Positions 6,876 through 64,000 of a stretch of DNA of 64,000 nucleotides are shown one piece after another. The position numbers and the translations under genes were made by a program. Below the pieces are notes generated by a model that was not told where the DNA came from, did no database searches, and was given only the letters and a program-made list of their open reading frames with translations. Origin of the DNA: Heptranchias perlo (Eukaryota); contig NC_090359.1 in NCBI RefSeq assembly GCF_035084215.1, positions 16,492,001 through 16,556,000 on the forward strand, read 5' to 3'. Numbering within the stretch: position 1 is the first letter of the stretch; every line of letters begins with the position of its first letter.

Positions 6876-9728
6876 CTAGATAAACTGGGTTTGCTTGTGT
6901 TTCCTGTTCAGGAACAAGGCAATCCAAGAAGCAGAGATCAGAGAGACAGCGCTCACAGTCAGGGCCAAGATCAGGACCACCTCAGACGCCACACCTATAA
7001 AGCAACAAGAAACCAATGGTTAGTGAAGGAAATACTGAGGGGAAAATGGAAACTAGCAGTCGGCCAACTCACCACCTGGAGACCTCTCCTGCATCCTTTG
7101 CTCAACATCATTAAGGGGCTCAGTTGCCAGGTCTGTCACATGAGGATCCAGAATGACCAAGGGTCCAAGTGAGGCCTCACCCTCCCACTTCAACTCAGCA
7201 TCACTCTCTGCAATATCAAACATTCCAGTTAGAGAGTAAAGGGTGACCTCCAACAATCAAGAGGATCAATGTCCTACCAGGTCCAGATACAAGATCCCTC
7301 CTTCCTCTGGAATCAACGAGGAAATCCCTTGTGGCACTGCAGTTGCCCAGATGACAACAGGCACACACGTCATTGGTCGATTCTTCCAATGGGGTCCAGC
7401 TCAACCAGAGAATCAGTTTATCAACCAGGTTGTCCATCACCCTTTAATCAACACATCCCTGAACGAGAGAGGGAACTTACATATTCTGGAAAGTACAAGC
7501 CTTGTTCATGGAATCTCTCCGATCCACTGCAGCAACTTTCAGGTGACAGGTGATGAAAATCTGAGGGACACATTCAATACAAGTTGTTATTTCGTGACCT
7601 CCTCCCAACATGGGGAACCCAATGTTTGGCTTCCTCTTACCAAGGAACGGTCATCTCCAAAGAAGCGGAACGCATCCAGATCAAACTGGAGTTTGTCCAG
7701 CTCACGTTCACCTCTTGGCAACACAAAGGTTGAAAAGGAGTCCTCAGCTTTGCTGTCCAGGAGGCAACTGAAGAAAGATTTAAAAAGGGACAAAGTGAAT
7801 TAAGTGAACCGATTGAGACAGAACCAGCTGGAGAAAGCAGAGAGCTCCTTACCCATGGGAGTCAATGATGTTGTATCTTGGGGTGGAATCCTTGTCTGGG
7901 CTCAATGTAGCTGCACAGCTGTCAATGTAGAGCTTCAAGGGCATGTGGTTGGTCATTGAAACAGAGGCCTCAATGTGAATGAGGCCACCCAGGTAGTAGA
8001 CAGTCAAGGTGCGCTCTGTAAGCCAGTCATCTGAAGTACAAGAGGAAAAGGGTTGGAGACAGTGGGTGTAACTCCCAGTGGGAGACGACAGAAAAGCACT
8101 CCCCATCCACCCATCACATACCGTTCATAAGACGCAGTGAGAATGACAGAAGCCCTTCTCCAGACTTGGTCGAGCTGAATGGGATCCAGGTGGGCTTGAT
8201 AGGGTCACTGCTCACATTGCCCTTCCTGAAAGGACAGTACAGTAATTTCAGGACAACTTCACAGAACTGCACCTGCTGTGGACCTTATTTGCAATAGAGT
8301 AAAGATTCTTACCTAAAATAGTGGCACTCAATGGGAATGACTGCTCCATTAGTTCTCACAATAACAGATCCACGAGCATTTGGGGTGTGGTTCAGGTGGG
8401 TGGTGTCGACCAGGAAATCGCCAGCCATCTGAAAGACATCAGGTTAAGGAATGAAGAGCTGGTCTCATTGAACAAAAGCTATTTCTGGTCATTTTCCTAC
8501 CCTGTTAAGCAGCAGTTTAAGGGGTTTCAGCTGCTCCTCAATGACACATGATTGAAGTAGCTCCACCATTGGTAGAAGTTGCCTGGAGCAGCCTCTGTTC
8601 CTCTGCTCAGTCCACCTTCTTTTCCAGGGGACTTCAGGCCTGCAGTCAGAAACCCCTGAAATGATTGGCACTGCCAGATTTGATGAGCATTCTTTCCCAT
8701 ATAGATTAGAGCTTTCACCTAAAGGGGCTCAAGTTACCCCTGATATGGAGCACAAAACACAACATCACATTTAAATCTCATCTGTGTCCGTGGAATCAAT
8801 CGTATTGGCAGGTGTAACAACCAAAAGTGGAGTTCCCCTTCAATACAGTGTATCCCAATTATTGTTCCACTTGTTTCATCTTTCAAGGGAAGTCTCAACA
8901 GGAACTTCCACACTGAACATTCATTGACCACAAGTTGAGGCAACAGGCCTGAATATCCACAGGAAGGAAAGGAAAAGATAAATCAATTGAGGCACAAAAG
9001 AACAGAGTGGTTTGGAGAAATGCAGGTGAAGGTTCAAGGTCAATAGAATTGAATCTCTGAGTTAGAGAGTAGCAATGACCCATTTAAGAAAGATGCAGTC
9101 CCTCAGTGACAAGTTGAAGTTCTTTTTAAATATAAAGCGAAGATTGACATGTCAACATAAAGAAGTAGTTTCACACAGGGTGATACTTCACAGTGGGCAA
9201 AAATTTATACACAGATTTCATTCAGGGATCTCCTCAGTGGCTGGAGTTTCACCTGATGTTAATGAGTTCAGAGTGGGCAGTAATCTACACAGTGAAATTG
9301 GAGCAAGAGTTGAGGAATCACATTACCTGCAATCTGCTGCCACATTCATGGAGCCCATAGTCAAAGAGGACAGTGTGGTTCTGAGAGTAGATCCCAGTTG
9401 GCCGATAACCTGCTGTCTCCAGGGTCAGGTCAGCAGCTTTAATCAGGTGCCTGGTTCTAAATAAATCCATGTCTCCCCTCACCAGCAGGTTCTGCTCTCC
9501 ACACTGCACCATCACAGTCTGCAGTGGAGACAGACTTCTCCCCTCAGACACACTGAAATGGGAACCAAAGGGAGGGACAGGGAGAGGGACTCTCTGGGGC
9601 ACAGGGGTGGGTTTTACTCTTCTCCATGGAAATCTCTGCCCTCTAAACTGTTGCCAAATATCAGAGCAACAAACCACTCCAACTAACACCAGCACTGGGA
9701 ACAAACCTCTCACTACAAAATCCCCCAT
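6876..9728 (-). CDS. zp3: Zona pellucida sperm-binding protein 3 (ZP3/ZPC)-like, 9 exons, 460 aa open frame; possibly decaying
   Basis: Exons 9327-9728, 8313-8428, 8122-8225, 7853-8030, 7641-7767, 7481-7560, 7278-7399, 7073-7207 and 6876-6994 are all GT-AG and in frame (1383 nt). The protein has a signal peptide, ZP-N (VQCGE...LHECGS...IPIECHY), the IHP/PTWIPF linker, ZP-C ([32 protein letters not shown]), furin site RGRR, EHP (ASLGPLVIL) and a TM helix. AATAAA at 6857-6862. Confidence 0.92.
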
Positions 9729-9745
9729 GATACCAAATAACTCAA

Positions 9746-9842
9746 CTATCACTTTACCCACCAACCAGCACCTTTTTTTTTTCTCTTTTTTTTTTTCCTT
9801 TTTTTCTTTTTCTTTTATCACTTTAACCACCAACCAGCACCC
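9746..9842 (-). repeat. About 26-bp direct duplication of the ZP3 5'UTR flanking a pure A-rich tract
   Basis: tatcactttacccaccaaccagcacc (9747-9772) and tatcactttaaccaccaaccagcacc (9817-9842) are separated only by a T-rich tract (A-rich on the minus strand). Confidence 0.85.
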
Positions 9843-10165
9843 TTTTTTTCCCTTTTTTTTTGTGTTTTTTAGGCCCCCCTTTTACAAGAAGCGGGGGGGT
9901 GTAGGGTGTGCTTAAGTACTAAAAACCAAATAAAACGAAACCAGGCATCAAATTAAAATTTTATTTTCCTCGTCCAGGATGCACTCCAGCCCCTGCAGTG
10001 CCCACCGGTCGCGGAAAGCCTCAAGCGTACCGGCAGACACCGCGTGCTCCATCTCCAGGGCCACCCGGGCGAGGAGCAACCCGCGAAAGAGAGGCAGACA
10101 AGCCGAGCGCCCGCCCCCACGGACCGCGAGCATCCTGGACCTGTGGATATCCAGGATGCACTCCA
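9843..10165 (-). mobile_element. Tx1 3' fragment inserted at the ZP3 TATA position
   Basis: ORF 9948..10133 is the Tx1 ORF2 C-terminus (...ECILDEENKILI). The 3'UTR hairpin and A-tail abut the ZP3 5'UTR. Confidence 0.9.
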
Positions 10166-10179
10166 GTTTCGTCTAGTTT

Positions 10180-11459
10180 TCTGGTGGGTCAGTGGCGGGT
10201 GGACTCCCTGCCGGAGGAGCTCAGGCCTTTCGCCTGGAGTACCACGCACCTCCGGTACCTGGGAGTCTACCTCGGCCCGGCCGAGGAAGCCTGGCCGGCG
10301 AACTGGGAAGAGCTGGAGGCCAAGGTCGCCGCTCGCCTGGCGCGCTGGACAGGACTGCTCCGAGTGTTATCCTACAGGGGTCGAGTGCTGGTCATAAACC
10401 AGCTGGTGGCCGCCATGTTGTGGTACAGGTTGGTCACTTTGACCCCACCCCCCGAATTTGTCGCCAAGATTCAGAGGAAGTTCGTCGACTTCTTCTGGGC
10501 CAGAGGGATACACTGGGTCGCTGCCGCGGTCCTGAGTCTCCCGCTTAGGGAGGGCGGTCAGGGGCTGGTGTGCGTCCGCACCCAGGTGGCAACTTTCCGC
10601 CTTCGGACGCTGCGGTGATACCTGTACGTTGAGCGTCCTCTTAGATGGCGTGCGCTGGCGACGTATTTTTTCCGCCAGCTGCACGGCCTGAACTCCGACA
10701 CGCAGCTCCTGTTCGTCTCGCTGCTGGGCGGCCGCATGTCTTCCTCGCCCTCGTCTCTCGGCCGGACACGCCCTGGCGTACCATCCTGCCGTCCGGCGGA
10801 GACGGGGGTTCCCAGTGGGGTGCTCTCTACTCAGGGATCCTCCCGTGTTCCATCGGGGATCTGGGGTGGAGGGTGGCGTACGGAGCAGTCGCGTGCAACC
10901 GGCGGTTACGCCATTTCACGGACACCCAGGCCGCTTGTGATTTCTGCGGCCTGGAGGAGTCCGTGTTCCATCTGTACACTGGGTGTGCGAGACTGCAGCC
11001 CCTGTTTGATTATTTGAAGGGGCTGCTCCTCAAGTTCTGGCTGCATTTCAATCCCACGCTCCTGATCTTTGGCCGCCCGGTGAGGAGGGGAGCGGGCAGG
11101 TAGGTGGACGTCCTCGTGGGCCTGCTCCTGGGCCTGTCCAAGGTGGCCATCCACAGGTCTAGGATGATCGTGGTCCGTGGGGGCGGTCGCTCGGCCTGTC
11201 TGCCTCTCTTCCGCGGAATGCTCCGCGCCCGGGTGGCCCTGGAGATGGAGCACGCGGTGTCTGCCGGTACGCTCGAGGCTTTCCGCGACCGGTGGGCACC
11301 ACAGGGGCTGGAGTGTATCCTGGACGAGGAGAATAAAATTTTAATTTGAACACTTGGTTTTGGTTTGTTTGGTTTTAGTATTTAAGCACACCCCACACCC
11401 CCCTCTTATAAAAGGGGGGCCTAACAAAATAAAAAAAAAGAAAAAAGGAAAAAAAAAAA
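10180..11459 (+). mobile_element. 5'-truncated, internally deleted Tx1 (head-to-head with the previous fragment)
   Basis: ORFs 9998..10618, 10645..11103 and 11104..11349 match Tx1 ORF2 (LVGQWRVDSL...; CDFCGLEESVFH; ENKILI). About 540 bp are missing at 10742 relative to 46700-47240, with premature stops. A-tail at 11425-11459. Confidence 0.92.
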
Positions 11460-11910
11460 TCTGAAAGTGAAAAAAAAAATCTGAAAGTTTCTCTTTGTTT
11501 CAATCTCTTGGAATCATAACTTTGAATTATTTGATAATAATTTGATATTTTCACTGAAGTGGCTTTTCATAATCTGGTCAAGTTTATTACTTGTTAGTGA
11601 TTGTGATGTTGAGACAATATTCAAAGCAATCAAGTTGTCTTGAGTGAATTTGCAAACCATCCATTGGTCAGAGAAATGGAAATTCCATCCCATGGATGGT
11701 GTGAATCGTCCCCAGTTCTAATATAGAGAATGGGTGTGTCTGAGGATTGGCAGCATGGGGGCATCAACTGGGCAAAGCATTGTGGGATGCATCATTTTTA
11801 GTTTTGATTCTCATGAAATGTTGTTTGGTAAAATTCAGGATATTCAGCGAGAATGAGAGGCAGTGAAGATTACTGAATGCAATGTCACCCACACAAACAT
11901 CTCCATTTGT

Positions 11911-34153: not shown

Positions 34154-37100
34154 TCAAATTAAAATTTTATTATCCTCGTCCAGGATGCACTCCAGCCCCT
34201 GCGGTGCCCACCGGCCGCGGAAAGCCTCGAGCGTACCGGCAGACACCGCGTGCTCCATCTCCAGGGCCACCCGGGCGCGGAGCATTCCGCGGAAGAGAGG
34301 CAGACAGGCCGAGCGACCGCCCCCACGGACCACGATCATCCTAGACCTGTGGATGGCCACCTTGGACAGGCCCAGGAGCAGGCCCACGAGAACGTCCACC
34401 GACCTGCCCGCCCCCCTCCTCACCGGGCGGCCAACGATCAGGAGCGTGGGACTGAAATGCAGCCAGAACTTGAGGAGCAGCCCCTTCAAATAATCAAACC
34501 GGGGCTGCAGTCTCCCACACCCCGTGAACAAATGAAACACGGACTCCTCCAGGCCGCAGAAATCACAAGCGGCCTGGGTGTCCGTGAAATGGCGTAACCG
34601 CCGGTTGCACGCGACTGCTCCGTGCGCCACCCTCCACCCCAGATCCCCGATGGAACACGGGAGGATCCCTGAGTAGAGAGCCCCCCACTGGGAACCCCCG
34701 TCTCCGCCGGACGGCAGGATGGTACGCCAGGGCGTGTCCGGCCGAGAGACGAGGGCGAGGAAGTGGATGGTGTGCAGGAGCAGCCCGTACAGGAAATCCC
34801 TCCGCGCGGTGTGAAACGGCACGGAGGGAATTTCCGAGAGACGGCTGAAGTTGTGAGGCGCGGCCCTCCGAGGGAGGTTCCGGGGTTTGGCGCCGAGGAG
34901 GAAGTCCGTCCGAACGGGGGTCAGGTCGGACGGGATGGCTCCGCACGACTGAGCCGCCTCCACATCCCGAGTGGAGTCAGGGCCGAGCGCCGATTTCAAC
35001 GCCCAGATGGCGATGGCCGCGTCACCGGCACGCCACGAGGACATCCGTGCGGCGAGCGCCCACGGCTCCAAACAACCCGACCCACCGCCATCCAGGACGT
35101 CCCTGACTCTGGTCACCCGACCGGCCACGGCCCTCCGCACCGACAGCCGCGAGTGGCCGAAGCCGATATCGCGGAGGAACGGATTCCCGAGCAGCGGCTC
35201 CTGCAGGACGGCCGCTACCCCTGACGGGCGAGAGCTCCGACCGGAGGCGACCATGTTCCAGACCCTGAGCAGATCCTGGTAAAAGACAGGCAGCTCCTGC
35301 AAAGACATGCGGCCGCCCACCAGCGAGATGAACAGGAGCTGCGTGTCGTAGTTCAGGCCGTGCACCTGGCGGAAAAAATACGTCGCCAGCGCACGCCATC
35401 TAAGAGGACGCTCAACGTACAGGTATCGCCGCAGCGTCCGAAGGCGGAAAGTTGCCACCTGGGTGCGGACGCACACCAGCCCCTGACCGCCCTCCCTAAG
35501 CGGGAGACTCAGGACCGCGGCAGCGACCCAGTGTATCCCTCTGGCCCAGAAGAAGTCGACAAACTTCTTCTGAATCTTGGCGACAAACTCGGGGGGTGGG
35601 GTCAAAGTGACCCATCTGTACCACAACATGGCGGCCACCAGCTGGTTTATGACCAGCACTCGACCCCTGTAGGATAACACTCGGAGCAGTCCTGTCCAGC
35701 GCGCCAGGCGAGCGGCGACCTTGGCCTCCAGCTCTTCCCAGTTCGCCGGCCAGGCTTCCTCGGCAGGGCCGAGGTAGATTCCCAGGTACCGGAGGTGCGT
35801 GGTACTCCAGGCGAAAGGCCTGAGCTCCTCCGGCAGGGAGTCCACCCGCCACTGACCCACCAGGAGTCCGGAACATTTCTCCCAGTTGATCCTTGCGGAA
35901 GACGCCGCAGAGTAGACCTCTTGGCACTCGCGCATCCTCCGCAAGTCAAGGGGATCGGTGACCACGAGGAGCACGTCGTCGGCGTAAGCCGAAAGGACGA
36001 CCTCCACGTCCGGCTCGCGCAGAGCCAGTCCCGACAACCTCTTGCGCAAGAGGCGCAGGAAAGGCTCCACGCAGACGGCGTATAATTGGCCGGACATGGG
36101 GCACCCCTGACGCACTCCTCTCCCGAAGCGAAGGGGCGCCGTCAAGGATCCGTTAACCTTAATCAGACACTCCGCGGCGGCGTACAGAAGTCGGATCCGG
36201 GCGACGAAATGCGACCCGAACCCGAAAGCGCGCAGAGTCCCGAATAGATACTCGTGATCCACCCTGTCGAACGCCTTCTCCTGATCTAAGGAAAGGAAGG
36301 GGACCGACAGACCAGCCCTCTGGGAATGGTGGATCAGGTCCCGGACCAGATGGATGTTATCGTGGATCTTCCGGCCCGGGACCGTGTAGGACTGGTCGGG
36401 GTGGATTATGTGGGCCAGCACGGTGCCCAGGCGAGCAGACATCGCCTTGGCAAAGACCTTATAATCCGTGCTGAGGAGGGAGACCGGGCGCCAGTTTTTA
36501 AGGTTGCGGAGATCCCCCTTCTTAGGCAGCAGGACCACGACCGCCCTGCGCCACGAAAGGGGCATCTCCCCGGTCGCCAGACATTCCCCCAGGACCCGCG
36601 CGTAGTCGCCCCCCAGGACGTCCCAGAAGGCCCTGAGGAACTCCACGGTCAGCCCGTCCAGCCCCGGGGATTTGCCCCTAGAGGGCTGGTGGAGGGCGCC
36701 CGTCAGCTCCGCCAAACTCAGCGGAGCGTCCAGACTGTCGGCGTCCTCCGGGCCGACCTTCGGCAGGTCCTCCCACAAAACTCTGCGCGCCTCCTCGCTG
36801 GACGGATCCGGAGAGAACAGAGCCTCGTAGTAAGATCGAGCCCGGGCCCTGACTCCCTCCGGGTCCGAGACGAGGGACCCGTCGTCGGCCAGCAGCGTAA
36901 GGAGCTGCTTACGAGCCCCCCGCCGCTTTTCCAGCGAGTAGAAGAAGGGAGAGCCGCGGTCCAGGTCCCGCAGGAGCTGGAGCCGCGACCTCACGTACGC
37001 TCCTCGGGACCCGACCAGTTGCAGGTCCCTCAGAGCGTCCTTCCTCTCCTCGTACACCTGCCGCAGGGCCGGATCCTCGGCGGCCTGACCGAGACGGGAC

Positions 37101-38060
37101 TCCAGGCCAAGCACCTCCTGCTCCAACCGCCTGACCTCGGACTCCCGCCTCTTAGTCGACCCCCTCGCGTACTCTTGACAGAAGAGGCGGACGTGAGCCT
37201 TGCCCACGTCCCACCATAGCCTCAAGGAGGAGAAGCCTCCCCGCTTCCCTCTCCAGTCGCTCCAGAACAGACGGAACGAGTCCCGGAACCGCGCGTCCTC
37301 CAGCAGCCGGTTGTTAAAGTGCCAGTACGCGGACCCCGACCGGGCGCGGAGCAGAGCGAGCTCCATCCACACCAGGTGGTGGTCCGAGCACCACACCGGC
37401 CGGATGGAGGCCGACGGGACGCAGGAGGCGTACGCCCGCGAAACGTACAGGCGGTCGATTCTGGTGCTCCCCCCTCCGGCCCTCACAAAGGTGAACTGGC
37501 TGGAGTCGGGATGGAGATTCCGCCAGACGTCCACCAAGTCGAAGGACCCGACCAGGTCCCTCAACTTCTCCGTCGCCGTTCGGGCACGCGCGGGACCGGA
37601 GCGGTCCCTCGCCTCGAGGGTACGGTTAAAATCCCCCCCCGAGGATAATGCACTCGCCGGCGTCGACGGAGTTCAGGTAAGTGGACACTTCTTCAAAGAA
37701 GCTCACTTGCTCGGCTCCGGACCAGGGGGCGTACACGTTCACCAGGTGAAGCGGCACGTCCCCGTGGCGAAGGGCTCCGTGGAGCAAGCGGCCCGGCACC
37801 GGCTCCTTGACCCCCAAGATCTCCGGCTGAAAAGTCGGGGCCAACAAGATGGCCACCCCACTCGAAACGCTGGCGAGGTGACTCAAGTAGACCCCCCCTC
37901 CCCATTCCAGGATCCACGTGGCCTCGTCTCCCGGAACGGTGTGGGTTTCCTGCAGAAAGCACACCGCATACTTCCCGTCCCGAAGGACCGAGAACTTGTC
38001 AAATCTACGGCGGGCGTCTCTGCCGCCGTTGATGTTGAGGCTGGCTATGGTTATCTCCAT
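34154..38060 (-). pseudogene. Tx1-A ORF2: APE endonuclease, reverse transcriptase and C-terminal zinc-binding domain; one +1 frameshift in a C-run at about 37635
   Basis: SLNING, LQETH, GGDFN and SDH (APE); LDQEKAFD, QGCPMS and YADD (RT); CDFC...ESVFH. The downstream part is the 1136-aa ORF 34154..37564. Confidence 0.93.
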
Positions 38061-38090
38061 GGCAAGAGCACAGCGCAACCTACCTAAAAA

Positions 38091-40140
38091 CTAATGCGCG
38101 GAGGGAGCGGGGCCGCTAGTCGACCTCCTCTCCCCCCAAGAGCCCGGTGAGGAGGGATCTGAGCCGGCGCAGACCGACCCCGCCGCCGTCCTCCTCCGCG
38201 GCCACGGACACGACGGCGGCCCGGACCGAGCGGATCAGATGCGCCGGCTCCGACCAACGGTCGAGGGCCCGCCGGGCGCCATTGCCATGATGGGTCCAAC
38301 CGGACACAAAATCCCGGAGTTCCTCAACGGGGATGAGGGGAGACTCGGTGCAGGGCACGAGGGCGTCCACCACCTCACTGGCGGCGAACTCTAAATCCTC
38401 CCCAGTGCCCACCACCGAGTCCCCGACCTCCTCCGGGCCATCGTCGCCCGCGGCCGACCCACTCCCCGCACAGGGTGCGGAGAACGGGATGGCCGCGCCG
38501 GCCGGCCCCAACTCTGTCACGATCCCACCCCCAGGATCGTCGGCAGAGGATTCCTCCCCGGGCTCTACCGGGGGGTCCGGGTCGGAGGGCGGCTCCGGGC
38601 GAGGACCCTCCCCAGCCTCCGAGCGGTGGTAAACGGGCACCCGGATATAATGGGAAACCGGGGAAACCGGGGAGAACATATATTCCAGCTCTCCAACCTC
38701 CCCCGGCTCCGCGCCCAGAGACTGGGAGAAGGGGGTCTCCCCACCCACACCGCCACCGACCGACCCGGCCCGTGACATTTTCGTGTTAAAACCCGCCACC
38801 AGGTCGAGCAGGTCCTGGGAGAGGTCGAGCCGAGGGCAGACGAATCCGGCCTCTTCGGCCTCGCCCGCTCCGGCACCCAGGACCCCCGACCCGGTGAACG
38901 GGAAGCTCGCGTCGGCGCACGAATCCGCGGCCCCCCCTTTCGGCAGGGTCTCTCCATCCCCCCCGGGAGGCACGGGCACGATCTCCTCCCCCCGAGAGGT
39001 GGATGACCCCCGCTGGCGGTGGGAAATGGAGGGTGGAGTCGCAGGATCCGCCGCCGGCGCCGACTCCGATTCCCTTTTCGCGGGGGGGCCGTCCCTTGGC
39101 AGGGTTCCCCTCCGCTTCCAGGGAGCGGCGCCTTTTCTGTTTTCCGGAGGGTGGCGGAGGGAGGGCGAGCCCCATGTCTGTTGGGCACCCCCCCTCCGCT
39201 CCCTCCTGAATACCCGCCAGCCCTGGCTCTGCCGCGACCGCGAGTTGCCGTTTGGCCGCGGTCACGACCTCGGGCTGGCTGGAAGGATTTCCAACCCGGG
39301 GACCAGCCTCCTGATGTTTACTCTTCTTCCGCGCCTTCTTCGGGCGAGGGTTCCCCCCCCACCCCCGGCGGAGGCCTCGTCGGCACCCTCCGCCCGCGCA
39401 GTGGACTCTCCCGACGCGGGGGCGGGTTTGGGGGGAGGAGCGGTGGCGGCGCCAGCCTCGGCCGCCGGAGCTGCTTTGGCGGCCTGGGAGGCGGGGCAGT
39501 TCTTCCTCAGGTGCCCCACCTCCTTACAGGCATGGCACCGCCCACCCTCTGCCGTCCAGAAGACGCGGTAGGCGGTCCCCTCGTGGAGGGCGTTAAAGCC
39601 CCCCTCCGTAACCTCCTCCCGCGCCAGCTTGATAAACGCCTGGCGACGGAAGGAGTAGACATGATGGAGGCTGGTGTCCCTGAGGCCGAGCGACAGCGGC
39701 GTTACCCCCGACCTCACCTCCCCCAGTTGACGCAGGTGAGGGAGGAGGAGCTCATCCGGCAGGAAGGGCGGGACGTTTGACAGCACCACCCGCTGCGCGG
39801 TGGCCTCCAGCGGGTCCACCGGCAGGAAAGTCCCGCCCACCGTGAGCCCCTTACTAAGGGCCAGGGACACCGCCCGCTCGGACCTCAGGAAGACTACAGC
39901 CTTCCCGTACACTTTCGAGGCCGCGACGATGGCCGAGGGGCCGACAACCTCGGCCATGGCCTTCACGCAGGCCTCAATCGTCATGCCGGGGTGGGCATAG
40001 GCTTTGACCCCGTGCTTCCTCGTCACGAGGCGGAATGGCGCCGGGCCAGCAGGAGTAGCACGAGCAGCGGGAGCAGCAGCCGCAGTAACGCCCGCATACG
40101 TCCTGCTGGGTCCCGGCACTGGCGAAGATGGTGTTGCCAT
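38091..40140 (-). pseudogene. Tx1-A ORF1 (nucleic-acid binding, CCHC zinc knuckle), frameshifted
   Basis: MATPSSPVPGPSRTYA...VVLSNVPPFLPDELL...CHACKEVGHLRKNC, split over ORFs 39262..40314, 38786..39265 and 38116..38979. Confidence 0.88.
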
Positions 40141-41039
40141 TCTCTTGTACGCCACGCCCACCCCAAATCTTAGGTCTTCCAGGTATTTTTCTTTTTTTTT
40201 GGTTGGACCAAAAGCCCAAGGAAACCTCCTCTCCCCAAAATGGTACTGATCTATTGGGAGAGGGGCTCCTTTTCTGGGGCGTTTTTTCTTTTTGTTTTTA
40301 AATGCGGAAACCACAAGAGAGAGAGGGAGGGATGTTCCTTAAAGAGGAAGGAGGGAGTCTGCAGGGGCGGGCCGCTGCAGAAATGTCTCTGGAGGGAAGG
40401 AACGTACACGTACACGGGTGGCCGATAACGTGGAGTCTTCCGGTGGGCAGGGGGAGGAGATGTCTTCCCCTAGACAGCCGGAGCTGACTCGGCTCAGTCC
40501 TCCACAGATGGCAAAAGTTTCTTCACCCAGGCAGCTCCAGCTGTCCCGGGCCAGACACTTGGGGGTGGAATCCCCTGTTGGAAAAAGATCTTCTTACCTC
40601 CCCCTACCTTCAGTCGGCCACCACGATCGCCGTCGACCTCCTCTTCCTGCTGTTTGAGGCTGACAGCAGCAGCAGCAGCAACAGCACACCCCTCGCAGCT
40701 GCCTGATATTTTTTTTTCGCCTCCTTCTTTCTTTCTCCCTCCTTCCCTCTCGATGGCTTTCCTCTCCTCTGTGCTCTGCACCTGCTTGCAGCACTTCCGC
40801 AGGGCCACACTCGATTGGCTGGCAAGTGGCTCGCCAATACCGACCGGCCCCAGCACTCTCCTCACAGGCCTCTCTCCGTGGGAGACGTGTGGATGTTGTC
40901 AGAGTCCGTGAGCCACGGACTCTGCTTCAGGCTGATTGGGACAGACAATTACTGCCAGTTAACAGCCCGCAGTTCGCACCGTCACTGATGTTGAGACCCA
41001 AAAGGTCAATCCTTTTTTTTTTCCAAAGAAACTTGTGAA

Positions 41040-41237
41040 ACAGGACAGTGGAAGTGATTGAAAAAAAAAGGATTCTAATGACATTGAGTTTTTTTTCTGA
41101 AAGACATCCAATCGCATCACAACAGCGACTCATTGAAATGGAATCAGGTGACTGCAGTGTATAAAAGGTGCTGGTTGGTGGGTAAAGGAATAGTTGAGTT
41201 GTTTGGTATCATGGGGGATTTTGTAGTGAGAGGTTAA
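41040..41237 (+). promoter_or_regulatory. Orphan ZP3 promoter, 5'UTR and first 8 codons in the palindrome spacer
   Basis: CCAAT 41108-41112, E-box CAGGTG 41145-41150, TATAAAA 41160-41166. 41167-41235 matches the reverse complement of 9704-9772 with 3 mismatches, including ATG GGG GAT TTT GTA GTG AGA GGT (MGDFVVRG), then stops at the Tx1-B junction. Confidence 0.88.
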
Positions 41238-41869
41238 TCACTGTGACACGAACAACTTGCTGAGAGCAGAGCAGAGCAGAGCACAGTCAGCCAGAGGAGA
41301 AGGAGACGAGAGGAACCATCAACAGGGAAGGAGGGAGAAGGAGAACACCATCACCATCAACATCAGCCGTGAGGGGTGTGCTGCTGCGGGTTCGGCCGTC
41401 AACACAGAGGGAGGAAGAGGAGGTCGGCGCCGTGAGGTGTGGACGGCTGGAGGTAGGGGGAGGAAGAAGACCATAAAAGGACAGGGGGTTTCCCCCCAAG
41501 TGTCTGGCCCGGGACGGCTGGAGCTGCCTGGGTGAAGTTACTTTTCTTTTGTTTCCATCCTTGGAGGACTGAGCCGAGGCAGCTTCGGCTGTCTAGGGGA
41601 AGACATCTCCTCCCCACTGCCCACCAGAAGGAAGAAGGTGCAGCCCCGCCCCTCTTCGACCCACTTCAGCGGCAGCCCACCCCTGCGGACTCTCTCCTTT
41701 CTTTGGGCGCCATCCCTCCCTCACTTGCTCTCCTGCTCTTGTGAGCTATACCTCTTAAGGCATAAACATCGGACAAAGGAGCCCCTCTCCCAAATTAATA
41801 TTGGCAGACGTGGGAGAGGCGGTTATCCCGACGTCCATTAAGGCCGTCTCCATCCATCGGCCTGAGACT

Positions 41870-43916
41870 ATGGCGTCACCATCTTCGCCGGTGCCGGGAC
41901 CCAGCAGGACGTATGCGGGAGTTGCCGCGGCGGCCGCTCCTGCTGTTTCTGCCGCTCCTGCTGGGCCGGCGCCGTTTCGCCTCTTGACGAGGAAGAATGG
42001 GGTCAAGGCCTACGCCCACCCCAACATGACCATTGAGGCCTGCGTGAAGGCCATGGCCGAGGTTGTCGGCCCCTCGGCCATCGTTGCGGCCTCCAAGGTC
42101 TACGGGAAGGCTGTTGTCTTTGAGGTCCGAGCGGGCGGTGTCCCTGGCCCTGAGCAAGGGGCTCACGGTGGGCGGGACTTTCCTGCCGGTGGACCCGCTG
42201 GAGGCCACCGCGCAGCGGGTTGTCATCTCCAACGTCCCGCCCTTCCTTCCGGATGAGCTCCTCCTCCCCCACCTGCGTCAACTGGGGGAGGTGAGGTCGG
42301 GGATAACGCCGCTGACGCTCGGCCTCAAGGATAACAGCCTCCGGCATGTTTACTCCTTCCGTCGCCAAGCCTTTATTACACTGGCACGGGAGGAGGTGAC
42401 GGAGGGGGGCTTTAACGCCCTCCATGACGGGACAGCCTACCGTGTCTTCTGGACGGCGGAGGGTGGGCGGTGCCATGCCTGTAAGGAGGTGGGGAACCTA
42501 AAGAAGAACTGCCCTGCCTCCCAGGCCGCCAAACAAGCTACGGCGGCCGAGGCTGGCGCCGCCACCGCTCCTCCCCCTAACCCCGCCCTCGCGTCGGGAG
42601 AGTCAACTGCGCGGGCGGAGGTTGCCGACGAGGCCTCCGCCGGGGGGGAAGGAGGGCACCCTCGGCCGCGAAAAGCGCTGAAGAAGACGAGGCACCAGGA
42701 GGCTGGTCCCCGGGACGTTAACGGGTCGAGCCAGCCCAAGGCCGTGGTCGTGACCGCGGCTGATCAACATCTCGCGGTCGCGACAGAACCCGGGCTGGCG
42801 GGTAGTCAGGAGGGAGCGGAGGTGGGGGCCCCAGCAGACATGGGGCTCCCCCTCCCTCCGCGACCCTCCGGCAAGAAGAAAAGGCGCCACTCCCTGGAAG
42901 CAGGGGGGAAACCTGCTGAGGGACGGCCCCCCGTGGATGGGGAGTTGGCGCCACTCGCGGATCCTGCGGCCCCACCCGCTACATCTAAACAGCGGCGGGG
43001 GTCTTCTGCCTCTCGGGGGGAGGAGATCGTGCCCGTGCCGCCCGGGGGGGATGGAGAGACCCTGCTGATAGGGGGGGTCGCGGATCCGCCCATAGACATA
43101 CGTACCCCGTTCACTGGGTCGGGCGGCCTGGGTGCCGGGGTGGGCGAGGCCGAAGAGGCCGGATTCGTCTGCCCTCGGCTCGACCTCTCCCAGGACCTGC
43201 TCGACCTGGTGGCGGGGTTTAATAAAAACATCTCACGGGCCGGGTCGGTCGGTGGCGACGTGGGTGGGGGGACCCCCTCCTCCCAGTATCTGGGCACGGA
43301 GCCGGGGGAGGTGGGAGAACTGGAGTATACGTTCTCCCCGGTTTCCCCGGTTTGCCCCTATATCCGGGTGCCTGTTTTTCACCGCCCGGAGGAGGGGGAG
43401 GGTCCCCGGCCGGCGCCACCCTCTGACGCGGACCCCCCGGTAGAGCCCGGGGGGGACTCCTCTGCCGACGATCCGGGGGGTGGGATCGTGACAGAGGCGG
43501 GGCCGGCCGGCACGGCCGTCTCGTTCTCCGCACCCTGTGCGGGGAGTGGGTCGGCCGCGGGCGACGATGACCCGGAGGAGGACGGGGACTCGGTGGTGGG
43601 CACTGGGGAGGATTTGGAGTTCGCCGCCAGTGAGGTGGTGGACGCCCTCGTGCCCGGCACCTAGTCTCCCCTCATCCCCGTTGAGGAGCTCCGGGATTTT
43701 GTGTCTGTTTGGAGCCATCGTCGCGATGACGTCCGGCTGGCCCTCGACCGTTGGTCGGAGCCGACGCAATTAATCCGCTCGGTCCGGGCCGCCGTCGCGT
43801 CCGTGGCCGCAGAGGAGGGCGGCGGCAGGGTCGGGTTGCGCCGGCTCAGGTTTCTCCTCACCGGGCTCTTGAGGGAGTGGCGGTCGACTAGCGGCCCCGC
43901 TCCCTCCGCGCATTAG
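41870..43916 (+). pseudogene. Tx1-B ORF1, disrupted (frameshift at about 42120, stop at 43662, zinc-knuckle H>N)
   Basis: MASPSSPVPGPSRTYA... continues in ORF 42063..43664 (CHACKEVGNLKKNC) and ORF 43701..43916. Confidence 0.88.
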
Positions 43917-43945
43917 GTTTAAGTAGGTTGCGCTGTGCTCTCGTC

Positions 43946-46900
43946 ATGGAGATCACCATAGCCAGCCTCAACATCAACGGCGGCAGAGACGCCCGCCGTA
44001 GATTTGACAAGTTCTCGGTCCTGCGGGACGGGAAGTATGCGGTGTGCTTTCTGCAGGAAACCCACACCGTTCCGGGAGACGAGGCCACGTGGATCCTGGA
44101 ATGGGGAGGGGGGGTCTACTTGAGTCACCTCGCCAGCGTTCCGAGCAGGGTGGCCATCTTGTTGGCCCCGACTTTTCAGCCGGAGATCTTGGGGGTCAAG
44201 GAGCCGGTGCCGGGCCGCTTGCTCCACGTAGCCCTTCGCCACGGGGACGTGCCGCCTCACCTGGTGAACGTGTACGCCCCCTGGTCCGGAGCCGAGCAAG
44301 TGAGCTTCTTTGAGGAAGTGTCCACTTACCTGAACTCCGTCGACGCCGGCGAGTGCATTATCCTCGGGGGGGATTTTAACCGTACCCTCGAGGCGAGGGA
44401 CCGCTCCGGTCCCGCGGATCGCCGGTCGGCGACGGGGAAGTTGAAGGACCTGGTCGGGTCCTTCGACTTGGTGGATGTCTGGCGGAATTTCCATCCCGAC
44501 TCCAGCCAGTTCACCTTTGTGAGGGCTGCAGGAGGGAGCACCAGAATCGACCGCCTGTACGTTTCGCGGGCGTACGTCTCCTGCGTCCTGTCGGCCTCCA
44601 TCCGGCCGGTGTCGTGCTCGGACCACCACCTGGTGTGGATGGAGCTCGCTCTGCTCCGCGCTCGGTCTGGGTCCGCGTACTGGCACTTTAACAACCGGCT
44701 GCTGGAGGACGCGCGGTTCCGGGACTCGTTCCGTCTGTTCTGGAGCGACTGGAGAGGGAAGCGGGGAGGCTTCTCCTCCTTGAGGCTATGGTGGGACGTG
44801 GGCAAGGCTCACGTCCGCCTCTTCTGTCAAGAGTACGCGAGGGGGTCGACTAAGAGGCGGGAGTCCGAGGTCAGGCGGTTGGAGCAGGAGGTGCTTGGCC
44901 TGGAGTCCCGTCTCGGTCAGGCCGCCGAGGATCCGGCCCTGCGGCAGGTGTACGAGGAGAGGAAGGACGCTCTGAGGGACCTGCAACTGGTCGGGTCCCG
45001 AGGAGCGTACGTGAGGTCGCGGCTCCAGCTCCTGCGGGACCTGGACCGCGGCTCTCCCTTCTTCTACTCGCTGGAAAAGCGGCGGGGGGCTCGTAAGCAG
45101 CTCCTTACGCTGCTGGCCGACGACGGGTCCCTCGTCTCGGACCCGGGGGGAGTCAGGGCCCGTGCTCGATCTTTCTACGAGGCTCTGTTCTCTCCGGATC
45201 CGTCCAGCGAGGAGGCGCGCAGAGTTTTGTGGGAGGACCTGCCGAAGGTCGGCCCGGAGGACGCCGACAGTATGGACGCTCCGCTGAGTTTGGCGGAGCT
45301 GACGGGCGCCCTCCACCAGCTCTCCAGGGGCAAATCCCCGGGGCTGGACGGGCTGACCGTGGAGTTCCTCAGGGCCTTCTGGGACGTCCTGGGGGGCGAC
45401 TACGCGCGGGTCCTGGGGGAATGTCTGGCGACCGGGGAGATGCCCCTTTCGTGGCGCAGGGCGGTCGTGGTCCTGCTGCCTAAGAAGGGGGATCTCCGCA
45501 ACCTTAAAAACTGGCGCCCGGTCTCCCTCCTCAGCACGGATTATAAGGTCTTTGCCAAGGCGATGTCTGCTCGCCTGGGCACCGTGCTGGCCCACATGAT
45601 CCACCCCGACCAGTCCTACACGGTTCCGGGCCGGAAGATCCACGATAACATCCACCTGGTCCGGGACCTGATCCACCATTCCCAGAGGGCTGGTCTGTCG
45701 GTCGCCTTCCTTTCCTTGGATCAGGAGAAGGCGTTCGACAGGGTGGATCACGAGTATCTATTCGGGACTCTGCGCGCTTTCGGGTTCGGGTCGCATTTCG
45801 TCGCCCGGATCCGACTTCTGTACACCGCCGCGGAGTGTCTGATTAAGGTTAACGGATCCTTGACGGCGCCCCTTCGCTTCGGGAGAGGAGTGCGTCAGGG
45901 GTGCCCCATGTCCGGCCAATTATACGCCGTCTGCGTAGAGCCTTTCCTGCGCCTCTTGCGCAAGAGGTTGTCGGGACTGGCTCTGCGCGAGCCGGACGTG
46001 GAGGTCGTCCTTTCGGCTTACGCCGACGACGTGCTCCTCGTGGTCACCGATCCCCTTGACTTGCGGAGGATGCGCGAGTGCCAAGAGGTCTACTCTGCGG
46101 CGTCTTCCGCAAGGATCAACTGGGAGAAATGTTCCGGACTCCTGGTGGGTCAGTGGCGGGTGGACTCCCTGCCGGAGGAGCTCAGGCCTTTCGCCTGGAG
46201 TACCACGCACCTCCGGTACCTGGGAGTCTACCTCAGCCCTGCCGAGGAAGCCTGGCCGGCGAACTGGGAAGAGCTGGAGGCCAAAGTCGCCGCTCGCCTG
46301 GCGCGCTGGACAGGACTGCTCCGAGTGTTATCCTACAGGGGTCGTGTGCTGGTCATAAACCAGCTGGTGGCCGCCATGTTGTGGTACCGGTTGATCACTT
46401 TGACCCCCCCCCCCTGAGTTTGTCGCCAAGATTCAGAAGAAGTTTGTTGACTTCTTCTGGGCCAAAGGGATGCACTGGGTCGCTGCCGCGGTCCTGAGTC
46501 TCCCATTTAGGGAGGGCGGTCAGGGGCTGGTGTGCGTCCGCACCCAGATGGCAACTTTCCGCCTTCGGTCGCTGCGGCGATACCTGTACGTTGAGCGTCT
46601 TCTTAGATGGCGTGCGCTGGCGACGTACTTTTTCCGCCAGGTGCACGGCCTGAACTACGACACGCAGCTCCTGTTCGTCTCGCTGCTGGGCGGCCGCACG
46701 TCTTTGCGGGAGCTGCCTGTCTTTTACCAGGATCTGCTCAGGGTCTGGAACATGGTCGCCTCCGGCCGGTGCTCTCGCCCGTCAGGGGTAGCGGCCGTCC
46801 TGCAGGAGCCGCTGCTCGGGAATCCGTTCCTCTGCGATGTTGGCTTCGGCCGCTCGCGGCTGGCGAAGCAGATGGCCGTGGCCGGTCGGGTAACCAGAGT

Positions 46901-47852
46901 CAGGGACGTCCTGGATGGCGGAGGGTCGGGTTGGCTCGAGCCATGGGCGCTTGCCGCACGGATGTCCTCGTGGCGTGCCGGGGACGCGGCCGCCGCCATC
47001 CGGGCGTTGAAATCGGCGCTCGGCCCTGACTCCACTCGGGGTGTGGAGGCGGCTCAAGCGTGCGGAGCCATCCCGTCCGACCTGACCCCCGTTCGGACAG
47101 AATTCCTCATCGGCGCCAGGCCCCGAAACCTCCCTCGGAGGGCTGCGCCTCACAACTTGAGTCGTCTCTCGGAAATTCCCTCCGTGCCGTTTCACACCGC
47201 GCGGAGGGATTTCCTGTACGGGCTGCTCCTGCACACTCTCCACTTCCTCGCCCTCGTCTCTCGCCCGGACACGCCCTGGCGTGCCATCCTGCCGTCCGGC
47301 GGAGACGGGGGTCCCCAGTGGGGGGCTCTCTACTCAGGGATCCTCCCGTGTTCCATCGGGGATCTGGGGTGGAGGGTGTTGCACGGAGCAGTGGCGTGCA
47401 ACAGGCGTTTACGCCATTTTACGGACTCCCAGGCCGCCTGCAATTTCTGCGGCCTGGAGGAGTCCGTGTTTCATTTGTGCACTGGGTGTGCGCGACTGCA
47501 GCCCCTGTTCGATTATTTGGAGGGGCTGCTCCTCAGGTTCTGGCTGCATTTCAGACCCACGCTCCTGATCTTTGGCCGCCCGGTGAGGAGGGGGGCGGGC
47601 AGGTCGGTGGACGTTCTCGTGGGCCTGCTCCTGGGCCTGTCCAAGGTGGCCATCCACAGGTCTAGGATGATCGTGGTCCGTGGGGGCGGTCGCTCGGCCT
47701 GTCTGCCTCTCTTCCGCGGGTTGCTCCGCGCCCGGGTGGCCCTGGAGATGGAGCACGCGGTGTCTGCCGGTACGCTCGAGGCTTTCCGCGGCCGGTGGGC
47801 ACCGCAGGGGCTGGAGTGCATCCTGGACGAGGAGAATAAAATTTTAATTTGA
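43946..47852 (+). pseudogene. Tx1-B ORF2 (APE, RT, zinc-binding domain); one +1 frameshift in the C11 run at 46404-46414
   Basis: ORFs 43928..46417 (829 aa, APE and RT with YADD) and 46470..47852 (460 aa) join if one C is removed. Confidence 0.93.
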
Positions 47853-48122
47853 ACACTTGGTTTTGGTTTATTTGGTTTTTAGTATTTAAGCACAGCCCAC
47901 ACCCCCTTCTTATAAAAGGGGGGCCTAATTTTAAAAAAAAAGAGAAAAAAAAAAGAAAAAAAAAAAGAGTTGATCAGGAAAATTAAAATTCTTATTTGAC
48001 TCTGGTTATTGATTTGTATTAAAAATAAAGTTGTCATCCTAAACCTACCCCCAGCCAAAGGGGCTTAAATAAAATCAAAAGCAAAAGAAATATCTAAATA
48101 AACCCGTTTAGGAGACACTGGG

Positions 48123-61863: not shown

Positions 61864-63912
61864 ATGGCTTCCCAAGTGTGTCAGAACTATCACAAGGAGT
61901 GTGAGGATGGTGTCAACAAGCAGATCAATATGGAGCTCTATTCCTCCTATGTTTATCTTTCTATGGTGAGTTTTGTTTCTTTGACCCCTTCACATTGGAG
62001 ATTCTAATGTGACATTACAAAATTCTGTTTTCTCCAACTCATCTATTGCCTTTTCTCTAATCTGCACCCCTCCCCCCAATTGATGGATGGTGAGTGTCTT
62101 TTTAAAGCTGTAATATAATGTGATTTATTGTACAGTCATTATCAAAATGTCTCCCTCTTCCTTGCAGTAGTTGCACCACATTCTATATCTTAAATCTCAA
62201 TTGTTCACTTTCCTGGTGTCTGAGCTTTCTATTGAAGTTGTGTTTTGCAGTACACTCTGCATTCAATGCCTGGGATTCATATTTCTTACCCTCTATTCTA
62301 CATCTCTCCACAGTCTTTCCCCACATTCTCCTTGCAATGGGGGGGGGGGGGTCATAATCTTAAATTAGAGCTAGTCCATTTAGGAGGTAAGTGAGGAAGC
62401 ACTTTTCCCCTCAAAGGTACTGGAAATCTAGAACTCTCTCCCTTGAAAGTCTGTGGATGTTGGGGATTAATTGGTGCTTTCAAGACTGAAATCTTTTGTT
62501 GGGTCAGGGTATTGAAGGATGAGTTGATGTACAGATCCATGTTCTAATTAAATCATTGAGTTGGCTCAAATGGCTGTATGTCCCACTTCTGTTTCCATGC
62601 TCTGAACCTTCACTTTTTAAGTACCAGCTTGTCCCTGTCTGTCTTCTCTCTCTGCCTTTGCTCTATTGGTGGTAGGGCCTTCAGCCATTTTGGTCCTCCT
62701 CAGTGTAACTGTTAATCCCTTTGCCTTCCTACCTCTGTCTGTCTCTCAAAGCATTCAAATGCTAACAGTTTCTAGTCATGCAACTCTTACTGCTTGGTAT
62801 CTGTTTCTCCTCTGAAATGCCTTGATGTTTAGTGTTGAAGGTGCTAAGTTAATGCTGTTTGTGGTAGTTGTAGAAAGGGGTTTGTTTCAAATTTCAGTCA
62901 TGAAAAGGATGTAAGCTTTTATGTTCCTTCACTAATTTCTAGACATATAATTCAGTCTTGGGTGTGAAGATTAAAGTGAAATATTGTGTTGAGCATGTTC
63001 AAAGCTGAATTGGTAATTTTCCATTGGCCAGCTTCCCTATTGCTAGGAGTGAGATTATCTCACTACCAGGTTAGTGAAGCAAGTCAGCCTGTGCTAGTTT
63101 TCAGAACCATCTGCCTACAAGCTCAGTGAGACTTGAACCCTTGACAGAAAGCAAAATATTGAGGTTGGCTTTATGTACAATACCCATGATGATAATTCTG
63201 ATACCCAACTACTTTTGATCTCACCAGTCCTATTACTTTGACCGGGATGATGTTGCCCTGCTTCACTTTGCTGAGTTCTTCAAGGAGCAGTCGCATGAGG
63301 AATGGGAGCACGCTGAGAAACTGCTGAAATTCCAGAATCAGCGTGGGGGCCGAGTCATCTTGGAGGATATCAAGGTTAGATTTAATGGAGTGGCCTTCTG
63401 AATGGCTCCCCTTAAATGGACAATTTTAAATATTTCTAAAGCAATTTGTTCTCATGCACATAATTACATAGAATGTCCAGCACAGAAACAGGACATTTAG
63501 CCCAACTGGTCTATGCTGGTGTTTATGCTCCACATGAGCTGCCTCCCACCTTCATCTTGCCCTATCATCACATCCATCTATTACTGTCTCCCTCAGTACT
63601 TCTCCTTAAAGACATTTATACTATTTGACTCGTGGTTGTGGTGGTGTAATTCTATATTCTTGGGACAATTGGTTCATGGCAACATGGACATCTGATTGCT
63701 TTTCACCCCTATTTTCCTTCAGTACTTTCTTGTGTATTTTGTTTAATCCATTAAGTGAACTGGCTGAGACCTGATTCCCTTTTCAGAAGCCAGAGCAGGA
63801 TGAGTGGAGCAATGGTCTGGAGGTGATGCAGAGAGCTCTGCAGATGGAGAAGAATGTAAACCAGAGTCTGCTGGATCTGCACAAACTCTCCACTGAGAGG
63901 ACAGACCCTCAT
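61864..63912 (+). CDS. fth1: Ferritin copy A' (exons 1-3; exon 4 beyond window)
   Basis: Exons 61864-61965, 63228-63374 and 63787-63912, open frame. No CR1 in intron 1. R>L, R>W and A>V changes relative to A. Confidence 0.92.
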
Positions 63913-64000
63913 GTAAGTTTTAAATGTGGGCCTTTGGGTAAGTTCGAGGTGGTGGAAATTTACTGTCCTTGAGCCGATTCAAAAGATCTTCATACCCAAT

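Follow-up and report, generated by a model that had tools for sequence, protein, structure and literature searches.

Tx1 retrotransposons, a ZP3-like gene parted from its candidate promoter and an inverted duplication of ferritin loci in the shark Heptranchias perlo

Among described rearrangements, those of the DUP-TRP/INV-DUP class (an inverted triplicated segment lying between duplications) combine a template switch in a pair of inverted repeats, which leaves a chimeric repeat, with a second junction carrying microhomology and templated insertion, and they occur in different orientation conformers (PMC11293582). Reciprocal inversions induced by synchronous insertions of the L1 retrotransposon in human somatic cells show a head-to-head bridge with two poly(A) tails, and a target-site duplication that is split between distant junctions (10.1101/2024.08.27.596794, 10.1101/2024.12.14.628481); the inversion of the former report has a heteroduplication of 419 bp, and both halves in it derive from the same element. 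In yeast, inverted repeats that lie far apart and show as much as 25% heterology can pair once the DNA is single-stranded and thereby start inverted duplications, the outcome being dicentric chromosomes (PMC10164571). As to Tx1 elements, the targets named for them are transposons, small nuclear RNA and ribosomal RNA genes, satellites and microsatellites (PMC4494074). Here we describe a stretch of 64,000 nucleotides from the shark Heptranchias perlo (assembly GCF_035084215.1, contig NC_090359.1, positions 16,492,001 to 16,556,000; hereafter the window, with coordinates counted from its first base and collected in table 1), in which Tx1 elements lie between a ZP3-like gene and its candidate promoter, and next to two inverted copies of a ferritin cluster. 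An original prediction, made from the sequence alone, had read this locus as a Tx1-mediated duplication-inversion; the layout that it described is real in the sequence.

Self-comparison of the window reveals a large inverted repeat, 14487-34050 against 47967-64000, with three ferritin loci in each arm, which bears out the claimed doubling of the ferritin cluster. The arms differ at 132 of 15338 aligned non-Tx1 bases (0.86%) and are further separated by 18 small indels and two arm-specific insertions. At the centre of the repeat stand two near full-length elements that point apart, Tx1-A on the minus and Tx1-B on the plus strand; arm sequence is present twice in the window and the spacer once, and a triplicated inverted segment is absent. 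Ongoing arm-to-arm conversion was considered and set aside, the mismatches showing no significant overdispersion (p = 0.34 at 500 bp, 0.08 at 1 kb).

The second open reading frame (ORF2) of Tx1-B contains an N-terminal, APE-type endonuclease (PF03372, E=6.9e-11) and a reverse transcriptase domain (PF00078, E=1.2e-38), and ORF2 is 55% identical to that of Xenopus laevis Tx1L (YTX2_XENLA, P0071) over 819 amino acids and 63% over the reverse transcriptase region. In a reverse transcriptase tree (11 named rows picked from 120 listed matches, midpoint root, no L1 outgroup), a 100/100 split unites the copies of the window with Tx1L and with turtle, sturgeon and ray sequences. The zf-CCHC signal in the first frame (ORF1) of Tx1-A stays below the cut-off (E=0.0023, 18.4 bits vs 20.8), and the pieces of ORF1 from Tx1-B gave no match to this domain. 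By sequence resemblance, the elements are assigned to the Tx1 clade of retrotransposons that lack long terminal repeats (non-LTR).

The gene that lies promoterless at the left of the window is recognized as ZP3-like by the ZP-C domain PF00100 of its product and by a search with its exon 1 (9327-9728, minus), in which all 57 matches carry ZP3 or zona pellucida names, the best of them (86-88%) being ZP3-like proteins of Heterodontus francisci and H. perlo. The matches include five H. perlo clusters with 38, 14, 6, 3 and 1 members (sequences, not gene counts), and ZP3-like genes are multicopy in sharks; the window protein differs from one H. perlo representative, P0002, at 28 of 447 amino acids. 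As the original prediction had noticed, the gene body follows directly upon a Tx1 poly(A): on the minus strand it resumes at 9771, the base following TATAAAA in another copy of the same sequence. This other copy lies inverted before Tx1-B together with the candidate promoter, and the overlap, earlier given as 69 bp, now extends to 73 bp, with 70 of 73 positions identical between 9704-9776 and inverted 41163-41235 (the next best ungapped match in the window reaches 38 of 73). The copy at 41163-41235 starts in the TATA box (41160) and ends exactly where Tx1-B begins (41236), and its twin has the Tx1 poly(A) on one side and the ZP3 gene on the other. This arrangement fits a single target-site duplication whose halves now lie apart and which presumably arose in one event; its cut, TAT^AAAA, resembles the L1 consensus TTTT/AA (PMC1950540). 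Past the 3' end of Tx1-B no ZP3 remainder is found, and the 3' flank of Tx1-A (211 bp, 98.6%) lies there instead, again in line with what had been predicted. Elsewhere in the window, tblastn detects nothing of ZP3 beyond its first 15 codons (41190-41234), and neither a second gene body nor a second copy of the spacer is present. The additional A-tract between gene and Tx1 tail, together with the 27-bp extra copy of the target start, is most simply a later poly(A)-only insertion. The spacer is a candidate ZP3 promoter region. Of note, a perfect 11-bp inverted repeat with a 3-nt loop occupies 40900-40924, upstream of the TATA box.

Tx1-B appears to be a chimera. Over 47246-47571 the comparison of Tx1-A with Tx1-B yields 23 differences in 326 sites, but over 47572-47850 it yields 3 in 279 (Fisher p about 4e-4); past the same point, differences between Tx1-B and Tx1-C fall from 24/326 to 8/279 while those between Tx1-A and Tx1-C stay level (10/326 and 7/279), which identifies Tx1-B as the composite copy. 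Fragment D, the Tx1 3' end adjoining the ZP3 gene, differs from Tx1-C at 14 of 199 sites, a level like that of upstream Tx1-B and unlike that of Tx1-A. Over 47652-47719, Tx1-B differs from D at 6 of 68 sites (P = 4e-5 at arm-level divergence) but from Tx1-A at 0 of 68, a result that refutes the placement of a homologous switch at 47720-47850 in the original prediction; we now locate it in 47572-47651. That placement had leaned on an RGLL variant common to Tx1-B and D. The underlying GT dinucleotide (47720-21) is indeed restricted to these two among the seven copies covering the site, but Tx1-B equals Tx1-A at all six D-specific sites upstream, and we favour the view that the common dinucleotide was either retained or brought in by conversion as a patch. 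Hypermutation of D near its junction is disfavoured as a source of these six sites, of which four are synonymous by codon reading and two match older copies. Fragment D begins at 47652 of Tx1-B, directly past the switch interval. Another tract of the two elements is also unusually alike: Tx1-A and Tx1-B diverge by 0.84% over 44670-46225 and by 6.0% over 46226-47571, with 6 synonymous changes in 518 codons of the former and 26 in 384 of the adjoining tract. These counts rule out purifying selection as the cause of the likeness and indicate that the two elements exchanged sequence at approximately the age of the arms.

The other junction is non-homologous and joins D (9843-10148, minus) to Tx1-C (10181-11459 without the end of its tail, plus) in a bridge of 5'-truncated elements that meet 5' to 5', with poly(A) at both outer ends. 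It had been described as messy, with a 10-bp foldback and filler; the foldback exists, lying within a 17-nt match to Tx1 47811-47827, and the 14 nt that follow have no other copy in the window. Synchronous insertions would leave the duplication of a second target at the other bridge and no gain of copies; here the flank of Tx1-C has no long match elsewhere in the window, and the arm is duplicated.

One insertion, one homologous switch and one non-homologous junction constitute the most parsimonious reading of the window, and we consider it moderately probable that a Tx1 insertion in ZP3 was followed later by a break and a two-junction repair that duplicated the ferritin arm. In the first step, target-primed reverse transcription would have placed a full-length Tx1 at the TAT^AAAA site in one of the ZP3-like copies, leaving the 73-bp duplication 350 bp from the oppositely oriented Tx1-A; the halves of the duplication and the ends of the element are directly visible, and from them we infer a single event. 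In the second step Tx1-B would have broken near 47.6 kb. The end on the side of the gene body (D, proposed to be the original 3' end of Tx1-B) would have folded back, gained the short templated insert and joined without homology inside Tx1-C, after which synthesis would have proceeded through the ferritin arm, Tx1-A and the promoter to the 5' part of Tx1-B, crossed over to Tx1-A by homology and run through the arm again. Let a denote the ZP3 body together with D; b, the promoter between the 5' parts of Tx1-B and Tx1-A; and c, the 3' end of Tx1-A, the ferritin arm and Tx1-C. The D/C join and the B/A switch would then convert a-b-c into the order of the window: a, c inverted, b inverted, c. ZP3 would thereby be left promoterless, its promoter would face Tx1-B, and each of the three ferritin loci would gain an inverted copy. 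Both junctions are seen in the sequence and map to the same place in Tx1-B, which suggests one two-ended break with ends that were repaired differently, and the order of events and the pathway (break-induced replication or fold-back) are reconstructed from them. By our own derivation, a pure fold-back would yield a, c inverted, b, c, and a crossover between the arms interconverts both forms; hence the orientation of the spacer carries little information, and its present state may reflect a later flip between arms or an assembly conformer. The core of the two-junction model in the original prediction thus fits, with the corrected switch adjoining the 5' end of D, while the ancestral order that it proposed is only partly documented.

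Regarding timing, the two nonsense codons and the deletion of Tx1-C suit an element older than the junction, and pooled changes (5 private to ZP3, 2 events in the duplication and 1 in its extra copy, 8 in all) exceed the 3.9 expected at arm age (P = 0.04); both are consistent with insertion first and rearrangement later, the pooled count as a weak lean. Several observations weigh against this history. The pooled count assumes 700 nonsynonymous sites, a figure that is roughly estimated. Between the flanks of Tx1-A no linking duplication is found (the best match is 9 nt and A-rich), which leaves the ancestral order unproven. At 73 bp the duplication is long beside the two others found here (13 and 8 bp), and its three mismatches exceed arm divergence (P = 0.03, or 0.15 if they represent two events). 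Kinship between Tx1-B and D is indirect, for the diagnostic sequence that they have in common amounts to 2 nt and 11 of 199 overlap sites differ; moreover, the coincidence between the start of D and the switch is modest evidence, since other short Tx1 fragments also begin within 47452-47783. Decay of ZP3 fails as a clock as well: several of its changes are common to H. perlo paralogs, so that only five private changes could be kept, and these do not decide the timing. In conserved columns, window ZP3 has 16 differences in 257 and P0002 has 19 in 267.

The halves of the duplication might instead come from different ZP3 paralogs, through independent insertions at the same TATA box or through one inserted gene that was amplified with its family, each copy then having lost the complementary half and the arm having been duplicated by separate Tx1-Tx1 recombination. 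Multicopy ZP3-like proteins in sharks, with 57 matches and five H. perlo clusters, would provide such paralogs, and the 3 differing sites of the 73-bp copies and the 11/199 between Tx1-B and D would be natural between them. Yet two extra and exactly complementary losses are required, the window shows no second body or spacer copy, and three mismatches are compatible with an insertion that predates the arms; we regard an origin from paralogs as unlikely. Concurrent retrotransposition would explain the D/C bridge differently, with two Tx1 insertions (at the ZP3 TATA box and at 11480), cDNAs joined head to head, and the free 5' part of Tx1-B repaired by invading Tx1-A and copying the arm. The bridge does look like that of the L1-mediated inversion (10.1101/2024.08.27.596794), and the duplication is a feature kept in L1-induced inversions and inverted duplications (10.1101/2024.12.14.628481), both points telling against the two-step history. 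However, twin priming as published would probably attach to the promoter an antisense fragment ending at a 3' break, whereas Tx1-B has its true 5' end there, in sense; the published case is a reciprocal inversion without arm duplication; no second-site duplication lies near Tx1-B; and Tx1-C has lost 540 bp, carries two stops and, over 386 codons, shows seven amino-acid changes of its own. Simultaneous insertion seems improbable to us.

It is also conceivable that the right arm is an assembly artefact, in which a jump between Tx1 copies linked Tx1-B to the other haplotype of the ferritin block, leaving the ZP3 split real and the ferritin doubling not. The join lies inside a 6.7-kb repeat, and allelic variation could account for the substitutions (0.86%), for the 18 small indels and for both insertions confined to one arm. 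Conversely, the arms are not identical as in a read-through palindrome, the change from B to A type falls in a short interval adjoining the 5' end of D, and the 1.5 kb over which Tx1-A and Tx1-B diverge about as much as the arms do speak for a real exchange between these copies. An artefact is very improbable in our judgement, and the two-step history stays the reading that we prefer.

Compared with the systems introduced above, the locus resembles DUP-TRP/INV-DUP rearrangements (PMC11293582) in its chimeric repeat (Tx1-B, at 47572-47651) and in its second junction with templated insertion (10149-10180). It departs from them in having a duplicated, a single inverted and a duplicated segment without triplication, and in that its repeats are diverged Tx1 copies of a shark rather than low-copy repeats with kilobases of identity. 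It works like the inverted-repeat template-switch class but, lacking the defining triplication, is not a DUP-TRP/INV-DUP member; the kind of rearrangement, an inverted-repeat template switch plus a non-homologous junction, is already known. With the L1 inversions (10.1101/2024.08.27.596794, 10.1101/2024.12.14.628481) it has in common the bridge, the paired tails and the split duplication, but these are somatic human events of which the closest is twin-primed and reciprocal, whereas here the promoter is linked to the element by its true 5' end, and a segment of at least 16 kb is duplicated. Tx1-A and Tx1-B, 1-25% diverged, lie within the range of repeats that anneal in yeast (PMC10164571), although according to our derivation pure fold-back keeps the orientation of the promoter, so that a later flip of the spacer would be needed.

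Table 1. Features of the window and their coordinates
Feature	Position	Strand	Remarks
ZP3-like gene body, without own promoter	6876..9728	-	9 coding exons (tblastn), exon translations stop-free, PF00100
3' copy of 73-bp target-site duplication	9704..9776	-	AAAA + 69 bp, contains ZP3 ATG
Second A-tract and 27-bp extra copy of target start	9772..9842	-	extra copy 9816-9842, between Tx1 tail and gene
Fragment D, Tx1 3' end with poly(A)	9843..10148	-	corresponds to Tx1-B 47652-47951
Non-homologous head-to-head junction D/C	10149..10180		10-bp foldback, 17-nt templated Tx1 piece, 14-nt filler
Tx1-C, 5'-truncated	10181..11479	+	lacks ~540 bp internally at 10742; two nonsense codons; A-tail double
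Left arm of inverted duplication	11480..34050		mirror inside window only for 14487-34050
Ferritin F1 (left)	14071..20487	-	open frame of 176 amino acids; left-arm-only LINE in intron 1
Long interspersed nuclear element (LINE), SGNH/GDSL-type ORF1, in F1 intron 1	15550..19430	+	3.9 kb, absent from right arm
Ferritin F2 (left)	23320..26373	-	open frame
F3 TATA box (28104) and sense Tx1 3' fragment E	28104..28375	+	13-bp target-site duplication 28113-28125/28363-28375
Ferritin F3 (left), pseudogene	28424..30323	+	exon 1 stop and 2-nt deletion, both also in mirror
Tx1-A, near full length, frameshifted	34054..40815	-	5' end approximate
Unique spacer, ZP3 upstream region (candidate promoter)	40816..41166	+	CCAAT motifs, E-box (41145), TATAAAA (41160)
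5' copy of target-site duplication	41163..41235	+	ATG (41211) reads 8 codons to stop created at Tx1-B junction
Tx1-B, full length	41236..47966	+	one frameshift per ORF; chimeric, A-type from ~47572
Inferred homologous switch interval, B lineage to A	47572..47651	+	A/B differences 23/326 before, 3/279 after
Right arm, inverted copy, runs off window	47967..64000		0.86% from left arm
Ferritin F3' (right)	51678-53554	-	pseudogene
Ferritin F2' (right)	55968-59027	+	open frame
Ferritin F1' exons 1-3 (right)	61864-63912	+	open frame; last exon past window end

Sharks have more than 100 clustered ferritin copies that are expressed in the ovary (10.1101/2024.09.09.611499), and ferritin is likewise multicopy in the window, with six loci. 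The accessible part of that paper describes an ancient expansion and gives no mechanism, while the window would record one recent doubling associated with Tx1; the accessible part of a whale shark paper (PMC8455134) contains nothing on ZP3 or ferritin clusters. The left arm itself looks like an older inverted duplication (F1 vs F3), for 11602-15483 and 33479-28873 are ~77% identical, with 94% identity over 11602-12006, and Tx1-C and Tx1-A occupy comparable antisense positions beyond the respective ferritin units. F1' may be starting to decay: within 63228-63912 it departs at three residues (R to L, R to W, A to V) from a sequence on which F1, F2 and F2' agree. The LINE of F1 intron 1, by its architecture probably of the CR1 group, sits at a site where ~15 bp present in the right arm are missing on the left. 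The 5' region of F1 (20490-20560) resembles a degenerate iron-responsive element; Rfam gave 0 matches at gathering score, hence no such element is called. Fragment E occurs in both arms (mirror 53604-54241, minus), and its insertion is independent of that at the ZP3 site. Nested in it at 53740-54103, and only in the right arm, are 364 bp comprising a second Tx1 3' end, ~115 bp of Tx1-A flank and an A-tract; in its Tx1 part, the variants typical of Tx1-A and Tx1-B at 47791 and 47870 are missing, which speaks against transduction from either element, so that its source would be another copy, unless the left arm deleted it.

Four of the five H. perlo ZP3-like clusters (P0028, P0029, P0032, P0036) are annotated from an internal methionine, with the first ~70 residues missing, and may represent further copies damaged at the 5' end. 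One shark-like ZP3 (P0006) bears the species name Salmonella enterica in its database entry, which probably reflects contamination. At 1407-2372 (minus) a single open frame encodes a rhodopsin-family seven-transmembrane receptor (PF00001), with a partial paralogous stretch nearby.

Tx1 copies of the window end in poly(A), with target-site duplications of 13 bp (28113/28363), 8 bp (at the 20783 fragment) and 73 bp (split between B and D); none was found at Tx1-A and three older fragments. Double tails, consisting of an A-tract, a short sequence and another A-tract, recur at 9772-9870, 11430-11490, 20930-21005 and 27755-27795, and the short sequence copies the target start at ZP3 and at Tx1-C. 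The fragment at 27191-27874 has a 5' inversion typical of twin priming (27191-27365 minus, 27363 onward plus), and its tail (27789-27874, plus) is similar to the Tx1-A flank, which itself resembles the last codons and 3' untranslated region of another Tx1 family at 33935-34050 (minus) and 47972-48086 (plus). While Xenopus laevis Tx1L inserts at one sequence in Tx1D (PMC1950540, PMC4494074), sites in the window are only A-rich after the cut; two pairs share 7-9 nt, in what is a small sample from one window, and no single recurring target sequence of the kind seen for Tx1L, Keno, Kibi, Koshi and Tx1-Mar was encountered among them.

Two sense insertions lie behind TATA boxes, that of ZP3 (cut 3 nt into the box) and that of ferritin F3 (9 nt from the start of the box). 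We counted ten Tx1 events (318, the ZP3 site, Tx1-C, 20783, 21250, 27191, 28126, 33495, Tx1-A and the 53.8-kb insert); short foreign 3' ends and secondary A-tails did not enter the count. That two of the ten fall at one of four promoter TATA boxes has P = 6e-4, rising to 0.015 when A-rich motifs are weighted 5-fold, in a post hoc estimate from one window. ZP3 is expressed in oocytes, and the long ZP3 duplication should keep the transcription start before the full-length element, so that a host oocyte promoter would drive Tx1-B. A preference of this shark lineage of Tx1 for the RNA polymerase II promoters of genes that are multicopy and expressed in the ovary, with insertion in sense behind the TATA box and with the same elements later acting as substrates for duplication of the clusters, is a doubtful conjecture. 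A literature search by titles and abstract openings, covering few subscription papers, returned no report of Tx1 at polymerase II TATA boxes or of this locus. If such a preference were true, it would define a new class of Tx1 target and a mechanism for the expansions of shark ferritin and ZP3; should Tx1 be enriched at ovary-gene TATA boxes genome-wide, this would amount to a new mode of non-LTR targeting, a germ-line strategy tied to gene-family turnover.

One broken copy in two multicopy, redundant families has little biological weight by itself. The locus is an unusually legible fossil of a complex rearrangement mediated by retrotransposons, with a split duplication that records the order of events, and it illustrates one route by which shark ferritin clusters may gain copies and ZP3 copies may be lost.

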